A stretch of 25,811 nucleotides of DNA from a virus (Duplodnaviria > Heunggongvirae > Uroviricota > Caudoviricetes), in IMG/VR virus record IMGVR_UViG_2778261502_000009; one strand, 5' to 3'. The notes beneath the pieces are model-generated. The model had not been told where the DNA came from. It ran no database searches and saw only the letters and a program-made list of their open reading frames with translations. This document shows, piece by piece, positions 10,919 to 21,061 of the stretch. Positions within the stretch are counted from its first letter, which is position 1. Each line of letters begins with the position of its first letter. Position numbers and translations under genes: made by a program.

Positions 10919-11200
10919 TGAGATTGTGGTGCTTTTTGTGGGAGTCATCCACTTACGCACTTTGTTTTGCCATGCCAGCAGTTAGCTTCTGCTGTAAAAC
11001 TATTCATGCAGCAAACCTGCACTTCACCACAATGGTTAGCATACTTTTCCTGATTAAGATTTTGCCAAATATGCTGGCCATTGTTTCATGTATTGGACCT
11101 CCTTAATTTTTATTAAAGAAATCCAATATTCACTACTCTGTCCGTATCTCTACTCAGGCATCAGCCTTCTTCGTTATCGTATACAGACGAGCGATGAATT

Positions 11201-11416
11201 TTAATCAGTAATGATGACATTTGCTGCTGCAGGACCTTTAGCACCACTCTCTATAGAGAAGGTAACCTTTTGACCTTCAAATAAGGTTCGATAATTATCA
11301 TTCTGAATCGCAGAAAAATGCACAAACACATCTTTACTACCATCAACAGGAGAAATAAAGCCGAAACCTTTATCAGCGTTAAACCATTTTACTAAACCAG
11401 TCATTTTATTTGACAT
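11201..11416 (-). CDS. cspB: Cold-shock protein (CspA family, CspB-like)
   Basis: 71 aa, [71 protein letters not shown]. Confidence 0.85.
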
Positions 11417-11716
11417 TCTACATTCCTTAACTTGAGCCTTTCGGCATAAATGGTTTGCATAACAGAAACGACTTCGTACTTAATTGGAGAGACTCAAAGA
11501 AGGAATAAGTGAATAACACCTGAAATGAGAACTGCTTTAGTAAACTACTTCGTATATCGTCTGTTCTTCAAACCGACGCAATCATTAACGCATAGTTGAA
11601 CATATGAAGCAATGTTTATTTTAGACATCCAGCCATCTTCAACCCCATCAAAAAACTATAGCTTTCTTCAGGAACGTGTGTATAGTGCGCCAAGTTATCA
11701 GTATTAAGGAATTTTT

Positions 11717-14879: not shown

Positions 14880-14912
14880 GAAAATAAAAACAAAAACCCG
14901 CCGAAGCGGGTT
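14880..14912 (-). terminator. Rho-independent terminator downstream of hokD
   Basis: CCCGC-CGAA-GCGGG hairpin with a minus-strand U-run (plus-strand A-rich 14881..14896). Confidence 0.6.
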
Positions 14913-14980
14913 AAGTGCGGGTGCGTTGAGGATGCCTGACACATCAGAGGTGGCGAGGGATTTCTCCCTCGCCGGGTCTC

Positions 14981-15136
14981 TTACTCCTCAGGTTCGTAAG
15001 CTGTGAAGACAGCGACCTCCGTCTGGCCGGTTCGGATTCGTACCTCGCAGAGGTCTTTCCTCGTTACCAGTGCCGTCACTATGACGGTTAAACAGATGAC
15101 GATCAGGGCGATTAACATCGCCTTTTGCTGCTTCAT
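14981..15136 (-). CDS. hokD: Hok-family type I toxin (HokD/RelF-like)
   Basis: MKQQKAMLIALIVICLTVIVTALVTRKDLCEVRIRTGQTEVAVFTAYEPEE, 51 aa, from ATG 15136. The track ORF extends in frame upstream to 15193 (MLDTCRLASYVPKGKEKQS-). Confidence 0.85.
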   Translation of the reverse strand: MKQQKAMLIALIVICLTVIVTALVTRKDLCEVRIRTGQTEVAVFTAYEPEE

Positions 15137-15408
15137 AGACTGCTTCTCCTTGCCTTTCGGCACGTAAGAGGCTAACCTACATGTGTCTAGCATGAAATTG
15201 GCCTCAGATTAATGTTAAGCGTCTTGCAGGACGCGTAATGTTAACTGGGGCTTTTCTCTATCTGCCTTTGGTGTTCATGCCCGAGGCAGATAGCCTCAAG
15301 CACCCGCAGCCATTCTACTTAACTACCTTTACCTCGCCAATATGAAATCAGTCAGAAAGACGATCCATAAGAACAATAGCAAGATTTCTTAATGGAGATG
15401 GATGTAAG

Positions 15409-16896
15409 CTAAATATTTTGGCTCGGTCTGCTTTCTATTAAATGCAACCTGTATTTTAAAGCATGATGTGTCCTAAACTCATTTTGTAGATTAATTTTTA
15501 AGTTAGGCAAACTACTTACGTATTCCCATCTACCTTGTTTTTTTTGTCCGATAAGTGAGTTATCAAACAGGAAGTTGATATATTGACGTATCACCCCATC
15601 AGAAATACCTGCAAATTCATTACGGCACTTCTCGGAGAAATCATTAAAATCGAATGTTTCTACTTGGATAGTTTGAAGAACAGTTAGTAAGTTCTCAATT
15701 TCAGGGAATTGGTTGGACCATTCATCAATCACCTCATTGTACACACTTATAGATGCTTCACGGTCAGCTTCATAAAGCTCATTGGAAGTGTAAAGACCTG
15801 AGACATTATTTTTATGACATGCCCTAATTTTGTTGAAGTAGACAATAATATCCCTAGGCCTAAAGAAAGAACGGCGACATATATATTTAAATGGAGGAGT
15901 CCCCTGCCTAACGAATGAAACCTCAAATACTTTCCCAGATCTGTCCTTTTCGTCATCTAATATGAGATCATTAGGTTTGTATTTCTTTATCCTCTCATAA
16001 TACATATCGTTTAGATTATTTTCATTCCATGAGATTATGATAGCACTATCTTGCAATAATTTGTTTTTATCATTGAATTTCAAAGAATGATAAATATCCG
16101 TTCGTAGGAAGGAAATGACTTTTAATTTATCATTGAGGCGTTCATCAGATGCTATGTTTCTACAGACATTTAGCAGATTTATTAAAACCTTACTATATTC
16201 TTCAATTTGCCCCTCTAGCCAGTTTTCGTCTAATTGGTCAAGGGCGATAATTATTTTTTCATTACCAATGTTATCTTTAAAAATTTTTTCAAAATACGTA
16301 AGCAATGTGAAAGCATTAGCTCTTAGCTTTTGCTTTAGCTGAGCATTCTCAGCAACTTCCTCTAACGAAATTTCACCTGCGTCCAATGATACTTCATTAA
16401 GACCAGCACTGGGCCCTTTTATGGTTTTTAATCTGGTTATTTTTGAAAACAAAACCTCCCTAAGAGTTGGGTCGGGACTACCAAAGATAGTTTTGATATA
16501 ATTATGTGCCCACGTTAGATCTTTGTTTAAAGTCTCTCCAGCATCATTTTTTATTTCAATAAGTTTAGATAATGCCTTAATATAAAAAAGATACATCCAA
16601 CTTTTTTGATAAGCGGAAAGTTCTCCAGCCATTGCATCCTTGTAAAGTTGATGGGCTGGCCATGGATAGTCACTAAAATTTAGACATACTGAGTAAAACC
16701 CGTTGAGATTGGCTGGTTTTCCTCTTCTAAGGTGTTCATAAATGGCTGTTTTACCAGTACCTTTTCTTCCAAGAACCAACCAAGCCCTACTTTCAATAAT
16801 ATCCTTTATCGCCGGTAGCTTAAAAAAATAGGTCTGTAAGTCCCGATCTGTTTCTGCTGAAACTTGAAATTCTGGTAGCCAGTCTCTAATGTCCAC
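15409..16896 (-). CDS. P-loop NTPase of unknown family (495 aa) in an AT-rich single-gene island; candidate anti-phage/abortive-infection gene
   Basis: Walker A LVLGRKGTGKTAI (aa 41-53); Walker B-like IIIALDQLDE (aa 215-224). AGAGGA lies 4 nt upstream of the GTG start at 16896. Flanked by 215-bp and 317-bp AT-rich non-coding DNA, and the gene is visibly more AT-rich than its neighbours. Confidence 0.6.
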   Translation of the reverse strand: MDIRDWLPEFQVSAETDRDLQTYFFKLPAIKDIIESRAWLVLGRKGTGKTAIYEHLRRGKPANLNGFYSVCLNFSDYPWPAHQLYKDAMAGELSAYQKSWMYLFYIKALSKLIEIKNDAGETLNKDLTWAHNYIKTIFGSPDPTLREVLFSKITRLKTIKGPSAGLNEVSLDAGEISLEEVAENAQLKQKLRANAFTLLTYFEKIFKDNIGNEKIIIALDQLDENWLEGQIEEYSKVLINLLNVCRNIASDERLNDKLKVISFLRTDIYHSLKFNDKNKLLQDSAIIISWNENNLNDMYYERIKKYKPNDLILDDEKDRSGKVFEVSFVRQGTPPFKYICRRSFFRPRDIIVYFNKIRACHKNNVSGLYTSNELYEADREASISVYNEVIDEWSNQFPEIENLLTVLQTIQVETFDFNDFSEKCRNEFAGISDGVIRQYINFLFDNSLIGQKKQGRWEYVSSLPNLKINLQNEFRTHHALKYRLHLIESRPSQNI

Positions 16897-21003: not shown

Positions 21004-21061
21004 TTTCTGGTGACGTTTGGCGGTATCAGTTTTACTCCGTGACTGCTCTGCCGCCGTTTTT
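21004..21061 (+). ncRNA. dicF: DicF small RNA (ftsZ-targeting), ending in an intrinsic terminator
   Basis: tttctggtgacgtttggcggtatcagttttactccgtgactgctctgccgccgttttt matches the DicF sequence as I remember it. GGCGG...CCGCC stem followed by a T-run. Located between the ydfB/C-like gene and dicB. Confidence 0.65.

Follow-up and report, generated by a model that had tools for sequence, protein, structure and literature searches.

A hokD locus in a Qin-like lambdoid prophage is very probably a complete hok/mok/sok type I toxin–antitoxin module

Main

The hok/mok/sok (parB) locus of plasmid R1 is plasmid-borne and has a proven role in post-segregational killing, and R1 hok is toxic without Sok even as a single chromosomal copy. 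In the Stx phages, hokW–sokW has been established by experiment as a type I toxin–antitoxin pair that aids release of Sp5 (VT2-Sakai) after induction, and its deletion halved Sp5 release after mitomycin C (PMC8621323). Escherichia coli K-12 carries hokC (gef) at a chromosomal, non-prophage site, with an IS421-family transposase gene close downstream, and, in its Qin prophage, hokD (relF), which comes third in the relBEF operon. A statement in PMC7232551 that cites Pedersen & Gerdes 1999 attributes the inactivation of K-12 hok loci to IS elements, point mutation or rearrangement, and a hokD homologue of strain NRG857c has earlier been listed as apparently intact.

Here we describe a hok locus in the window, by which we mean the whole 25,811-nt stretch of viral DNA analysed (IMG/VR record IMGVR_UViG_2778261502_000009). 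An earlier note on this DNA had read positions 14880–15408 as a hokD-type type I toxin locus that does not adjoin relBE, with an intact toxin ORF, a terminator downstream and a leader hairpin of the regulatory kind. This reading held up but was understated, as the locus appears to extend beyond toxin and leader to a complete module, and it missed the closest characterised relative, hokW–sokW of Stx phages 933W and Sp5. Judged from its sequence, the locus is very probably a complete and structurally intact hok/mok/sok type I toxin–antitoxin module of the hokD/hokW clade, residing in a Qin-like lambdoid prophage.

Results

Comparison with described hok loci

From about the -10 hexamer and tac to fbi, the hokW/mokW/sokW locus of 933W was 94% identical to the window (364/387 positions), with tac, fbi and both Sok promoter hexamers identical, and the hokW locus of Sp5 matched the window at the same level. 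The 933W record lists mokW in frame with hokW (57-nt offset, corresponding to window position 15193) and a 71-nt sokW (window 15185..15255). Beyond fbi the two are unrelated, terminator included, and they differ in position: the window locus lies between early-region genes and rem–ydfU–Q, whereas 933W hokW lies near the right end of its genome. Copies 98.7–98.9% identical to the window were found in the temperate phages HannyBb and mEp460_ev081.

R1 hok/mok/sok has the element order and spacing of the window (tac, 5′ hairpin, AGCCCC, then the mok RBS and AUG), the same Sok promoter register, a hok RBS and an fbi about 50 nt past the stop codon, and falls under the same Rfam model; its first hairpin is longer than that of the window. 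K-12 hokC has the same tac sequence as the window and likewise an in-frame mok with a 57-nt offset, but its leader is shorter (150 nt compared with 169 nt from transcription start to hok AUG) and the -10-like hexamer at its Sok promoter position differs. The alignment with K-12 hokD that the earlier note had proposed found the upstream elements to be missing from K-12 hokD. In the window all sequence elements of the module are present, in the order and register seen in R1 and 933W.

Toxin gene and 3′ end

The toxin end of the locus holds three features.

14981..15136, minus strand: hok (hokD) toxin ORF, 51 aa and a stop codon, with the RBS AGGAG at 15150-15146 upstream
14995..14998, minus strand: UACG motif at Tyr47, in a predicted 9-nt loop, as read from the sequence and the fold
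14886..14912, minus strand: intrinsic terminator, AACCCGC-TTCG-GCGGGTT (stem 14912..14895) followed by a T run

The ORF proved intact, matching Pfam PF01848 HOK_GEF with 81.6 bits (cutoff 22), and alignment showed a Hok of ~50 aa with the conserved TRK-LCE core and the invariant residues kept. A 651-nt region of the window was 100% identical to E. coli MRE162, in which the CDS is annotated as hokD, and a single protein accession, WP_000813254.1, covers both the Hok of the MRE162 locus and K-12 HokD. The hok coding DNA is identical between the window and K-12, as is the terminator. The Hok of R1 is only 43% identical to that of the window and the Hok of K-12 hokC 82% identical; 933W Hok differs in 5 C-terminal residues (VFTAYEPEE in the window against VFVDYESEK in 933W).

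Among relatives, the variable sites of hok were distributed over codon positions 1, 2 and 3 as 19, 15 and 38, a bias that is consistent with purifying selection. Variability per element was confounded by misaligned 3′ UTRs of distant loci and was used only for this codon-position bias and for tac. The UACG at hok Tyr47 corresponds to the TadA A-to-I editing motif described for hokD. Recoding of that Tyr to Cys by A-to-I editing has been reported in K-12 hokC, hokD and hokE (PMC5630033).

hok mRNA, leader and promoter

Upstream of the toxin, and in the 3′ UTR that pairs with the leader, we recognised the following.

15341..15384, minus strand: conserved flank on the upstream side of the module, shared with other full-length hokD loci from ~15384 onward
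15312..15340, minus strand: hok promoter-like site from a consensus scan, with -35 TTGGCG (15340-15335), a 17-nt spacer and -10 TAGAAT (15317-15312)
15292..15305, minus strand: tac element at the mRNA 5′ end, GGGUGCUUGAGGCU
15258..15293, minus strand: 5′ stem-loop with a 10-bp stem, 15293-15284 pairing with 15267-15258
15247..15253, minus strand: AAGCCCC, paired to the 5′ end when nascent transcripts are folded (metastable closure of tac)
14932..14951, minus strand: downstream box complementary to the mok start region (15193-15175), the two being paired in MFE and centroid folds of the full-length mRNA
14919..14931, minus strand: fbi element, CCUCAACGCACCC, forming 12 bp with tac and a 1-nt bulge

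The left boundary at ~15384 was the starting point of most full-length matches, whatever gene lay upstream, and recurred in the mEp460 alignment. A 16-nt inverted repeat (15334-15349 and 15383-15398, 81% complementary) brackets this flank and overlaps the hok -35 hexamer; it may be due to chance. The promoter-like site is a moderate match to consensus (9/12) with a predicted transcription start at G15305. It is located 6 nt upstream of the start of the Rfam model, and 933W and mEp460 both retain its -10 region. The model in question, RF01794, matched 15305..15134 over its full length (1-157 of 157) with 116.3 bits (gathering score 59, E 3.5e-26); although called ‘sok’, it describes the leader of hok on the sense strand, up to the hok AUG.

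Closure of the message by its two ends was predicted in both MFE and centroid folds, with GGGUGCUUGAGG (15305-15294) pairing to fbi (14931-14919) at a duplex energy of -21.5 kcal/mol (z -3.1). The 413-nt transcript 15305..14893 as a whole folded at -175 kcal/mol, compared with a mean of -124.7 for shuffled sequences (z -8.2). The hairpin that the earlier note had placed at about 15257..15296 is the 5′ stem-loop, which forms part of an inverted repeat (15247-15267 and 15284-15304). Folding of 3′-truncated mRNAs in ViennaRNA gave no clear tac–ucb refolded state of the kind described for R1, and truncation to 14932 still kept the pairing of the mok start with the downstream box in the fold.

mok and Sok

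The region between leader hairpin and toxin start contains an overlapping reading frame and, on the opposite strand, a candidate antisense gene.

14981..15193, minus strand: mok frame, 70 codons, in frame with hok, its ATG at 15193 lying 57 nt upstream of the hok start
15170..15207, minus strand: Sok target hairpin, with the mok RBS and AUG (15193-15191) and, in its loop, the YUNR motif CUAG (15190-15187)
15150..15178, plus strand: predicted Sok promoter, with -35 TTGCCT (15150-15155), a 17-nt spacer and -10 TAACCT (15173-15178)
15185..15255, plus strand: predicted Sok antisense RNA gene of ~71 nt, to which the annotated 933W sokW maps exactly

The mok ATG is preceded by an RBS, GAGG, at 15207-15204. 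The Sok target hairpin was seen in folds of both 3′-truncated and nascent mRNA and equals the third hairpin of the Rfam model. The predicted Sok promoter is a moderate consensus match (7/12) in the same register as TTGCGC-17-TATCCT of loci that encode the R1 Hok protein; similar hexamers occur in most family members and are absent from the relE–hokD form. The predicted Sok RNA would begin with 15 unpaired nucleotides complementary to the mok start, followed by a long terminator hairpin and a U-rich tail, and its fold (-28.7 kcal/mol) is more stable than expected (z -5.1). The locus thus appears to encode, in cis, a Sok RNA that has its own promoter and spans the start of mok translation.

The in-frame extension of the toxin ORF to 15193 had been taken by the earlier note as a difference from the classical out-of-frame arrangement. 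It does differ from R1, in which mok starts at nt 116-118 and hok at nt 174-176 (an offset of 58 nt), but it is no departure from the family: mok was in frame in 32 of 56 leaders (57 or 60 nt), with 20 at 58 nt and 3 at 56 nt. Even among close relatives of the window the frame differs, through single-base indels that cancel or add up. This variation agrees with a published view in which what counts is translation of mok as far as the hok start and not the Mok product.

Conservation of the RNA structure across the family

For family-wide comparison, 79 hok loci were taken from species-representative genomes, and 56 distinct leaders were used for tallies of structure and frame. The tac element was variable at 1/14 positions among 20 relatives and is conserved across the family. 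In most relatives the 14-nt 5′ end pairs with a 3′ element 45–57 nt past the stop codon, and the two sides change together: GGGUGC/GCACCC in the window is GGGCGC/GCGCCC in Photorhabdus and UGGAUC/GAUCCA in Mixta, with further compensatory changes in Kluyvera (GAGA/UCUC) and Citrobacter (GAAG/CUUC). This pairing was assessed with the 14-nt tac against the 3′ UTR, which replaced RNAduplex runs of 80-nt 5′ and 140-nt 3′ segments, as these gave over-extended duplexes and uninformative z-scores.

RNAalifold on a MAFFT alignment of the leaders returned just two 5′ helices, and the window structure was projected onto the alignment instead. In the 56 leaders 80.8% of cells were paired, compared with 37–53% when partners were slid, and 20 pairs were changed on both sides (4–12 when slid); none of 500 shuffles did as well. 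Helix 1 (AAGCCCC with the 5′ end) was 98.4% paired and helix 2 (the 5′ hairpin) 93.8%, the latter with 5 pairs changed on both sides; one pair of its stem occurs as AU in 29 leaders, UA in 15 and GU in 10. The inner pairs of the Sok target hairpin (helix 5) scored poorly in an alignment by MAFFT, which is not structure-aware, and bulge positions differ among the leaders. The 5′ hairpin is more than a chance feature because its stem is kept across the 56 leaders with compensatory changes. The idea that ORF and hairpin are both chance features was rejected by the Rfam and Pfam matches, leader conservation and the whole-mRNA fold.

Intact and eroding copies of the module coexist in E. coli. The locus of strain ECMA0423 (L010, 1947610-1949162) encodes an identical Hok, yet tac (...CTGCATGTGGCTATGTGCC...) and part of the Sok -35 hexamer are gone, and in strain TUM14771 (L006) hok is frameshifted and mok contains a stop codon; both are decayed copies.

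Loci whose Hok is the same, or nearly the same, as E. coli HokD or R1 Hok also turned up on mostly short contigs of unrelated taxa, namely a Veillonella MAG (L017), Acinetobacter idrijaensis (L027), Xanthomonas pisi (L034), a Ferruginibacter MAG (L077), Streptomyces morookaense (L078) and an Oscillibacter MAG (L079). For these, assembly contamination by E. coli, plasmid or vector DNA is the likeliest explanation.

Relation to K-12 hokD and relBE

K-12 hokD and the window have in common the Hok protein, the 3′ UTR, fbi and the terminator, as well as the downstream neighbours rem, ydfU, the Q-like ydfT and csp genes. Homology runs only from ~15150 (the hok RBS) onward, with the 3′ end of relE lying upstream of that point in K-12. 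As homology starts only there, K-12 hokD is without the hok promoter, tac, leader hairpins, mok start, Sok promoter and Sok gene. On this alignment, K-12 hokD reads as the same gene with everything upstream of the RBS replaced by relBE, that is, as a truncated form. This agrees with the cited inactivation of K-12 hok loci by IS elements, point mutation and rearrangement; for hokD itself, the sources for inactivation by rearrangement are a secondary citation of Pedersen & Gerdes 1999 and the present alignment.

Next to the window hok we found no homology to relE or relB, so that the locus does not have the relBEF form, and tblastn for RelE gave no match in the window-type loci L009, L012, L014, L015 and L017, while it did in L011, L016, L033 and L039. 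Of 5426 complete E. coli genomes, the full-length hok form was present in at least 1783 and the relE–hokD junction in 1173.

The relE–hok junction, with CTCCTGTCAACG... directly upstream of hok, also occurs beyond E. coli and Shigella, in Enterobacteriaceae bacterium G50 (L033:342-853) and Kluyvera sp. CHPC 1.2972 (L039:345-850); L011 and L016 serve as comparison. In L033 and L039 a RelE 95–97% identical to that of K-12 stands, at the same point, beside a Hok only ~70–80% identical to HokD. The relBE–hok arrangement is thus either old or the product of recombination with different hok alleles, and no single accident of K-12.

Genomic neighbourhood

The gene upstream of the module is not relE or relB, as follows.

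15409..16896, minus strand: Sll1717-family P-loop ATPase gene, upstream of hok, encoding 495 aa (NCBIfam 251 bits)

The earlier note had placed an NTPase island between the toxin and replication genes. The ATPase bears out the first part; the ‘replication genes’ were confirmed only in part, as the ORFs beyond it are a DUF977 ORF, a 339-aa ORF with no Pfam match and a YdaT-like ORF. Downstream of hok lie rem, a 92-aa ORF, ydfU (DUF968) and a Q-type antiterminator, the order found in K-12 Qin. The ATPase–hokD junction was present in 43 of the 5426 E. coli genomes, including AIEC strain NRG857c. PADLOC gave a weak match of the ATPase to PDC-M28C (E 4e-5) and none for Hok or Rem.

The slot upstream of the module, at ~15384, is occupied in K-12 by relBE with ydfV and flxA, in the window by the Sll1717-family ATPase, in an O157 prophage by a paa adhesin gene and in phage mEp460 by an unrelated ORF of 449 aa on the reverse strand. 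This slot may be a variable cargo hotspot of Qin-like and other lambdoid prophages. That hok/sok is more than a neighbour of such cargo, either as a membrane effector reached by read-through or as an addiction element securing defence or virulence genes, with ATPase and Hok forming a two-part abortive-infection unit, we regard as very unlikely.

Elsewhere in the window, Rfam identified two cspA-type thermoregulator leaders (11185..11577 and 8289..8674, both minus strand), probably belonging to the csp genes (cspB and cspI) annotated for the prophage in the corresponding part of MRE162, and a DicF antisense RNA (21005..21056, plus strand). These are standard features of Qin prophages.

Discussion

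The mechanism we propose for the window locus is inferred from R1 hok/sok and Sp5 hokW–sokW. A weak promoter would give an mRNA of ~413 nt starting at G15305, in which pairing of tac with fbi and of the mok start with the downstream box would leave the full-length message neither translated nor bound by Sok. Slow 3′ trimming would then remove fbi, and the mRNA would refold and expose the mok RBS and the Sok target hairpin. For as long as the locus is transcribed, the unstable ~71-nt Sok would pair across the mok start and block translation of mok and of the coupled hok, the Sok–mRNA duplex being marked for RNase III. Once Sok synthesis stops, through loss of the element, shut-off of transcription or prophage induction, mok and hok would be translated and the 51-aa Hok peptide would depolarise the inner membrane.

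One alternative concerns role only and is compatible with this mechanism: the module may serve the prophage other than by stabilising it, with Sok disappearing on induction and Hok speeding host lysis and phage release. The 94% identity to hokW/sokW, whose deletion halved Sp5 release after mitomycin C (PMC8621323), points this way, as does the location of the locus: it lies in a lambdoid prophage, with rem, ydfU, the Q antiterminator and lysis genes downstream. Yet ydfR, a gene of the lysis region, is annotated as frameshifted in the matching MRE162 locus, and 933W hokW occupies another genomic position, near the right end. We hold such a role to be possible but rather doubtful.

Structural completeness is no proof that the window copy is active, and the locus might be intact in sequence and physiologically silent if promoter strength, mRNA processing or Sok stability prevented killing. 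A literature summary reports neither post-segregational killing nor rifampicin activation for chromosomal hok loci (hokA, hokB and hokC), and statements in PMC5630033 and PMC7232551, both of which cite Pedersen & Gerdes 1999, describe the K-12 hok loci as inactive; the hok and Sok promoters of the window are, moreover, only moderate consensus matches. The inactive K-12 loci, however, have identifiable lesions (IS elements, point mutation or rearrangement), and none was seen at the window locus. Further against silence, the 94%-identical hokW–sokW is active in Sp5 (PMC8621323), a single chromosomal copy of R1 hok sufficed for toxicity in the absence of Sok, and the codon-position bias in hok and the compensating substitutions in the RNA helices point to ongoing selection. 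Silence of the locus therefore seems unlikely.

Most improbable is a further reading, in which read-through from the ATPase gene supplies most of the Hok, Hok serves as membrane effector in an ATPase-based defence and Sok control is secondary. In its favour, the ATPase gene is on the hok strand, the stretch from its stop codon (15409) to the hok promoter showed no terminator-like site, the ATPase has its weak match to PDC-M28C, and in relBEF hok directly follows relE, in the same orientation and with no separate hok promoter. But the module of the window retains its own promoter and full control apparatus, and the rarity of the ATPase junction (43/5426 genomes), the many unrelated genes found beside hok and the constant boundary at ~15384 together point to independent modules.

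A complete hok/mok/sok module, the reading we prefer, makes the window locus one of an already known kind, with a near-identical relative that is annotated and experimentally studied. Where RefSeq names a ‘hokD’ CDS, as in many E. coli genomes, it usually belongs to a full hok/mok/sok module, and the K-12 relBE–hokD arrangement is a truncated form, less frequent in the collection of 5426 genomes. In the RefSeq loci inspected (L001:9315-9470, L004:2667-2822 and L005:1682-1837) only the hokD CDS is annotated; mok and Sok are recognisable there but unlisted, whereas the GenBank record of 933W has both, which amounts to an annotation gap. The finding matters little beyond annotation and raises no new question, but it would be useful for cataloguing type I toxin–antitoxin systems or for work with NRG857c and MRE162.
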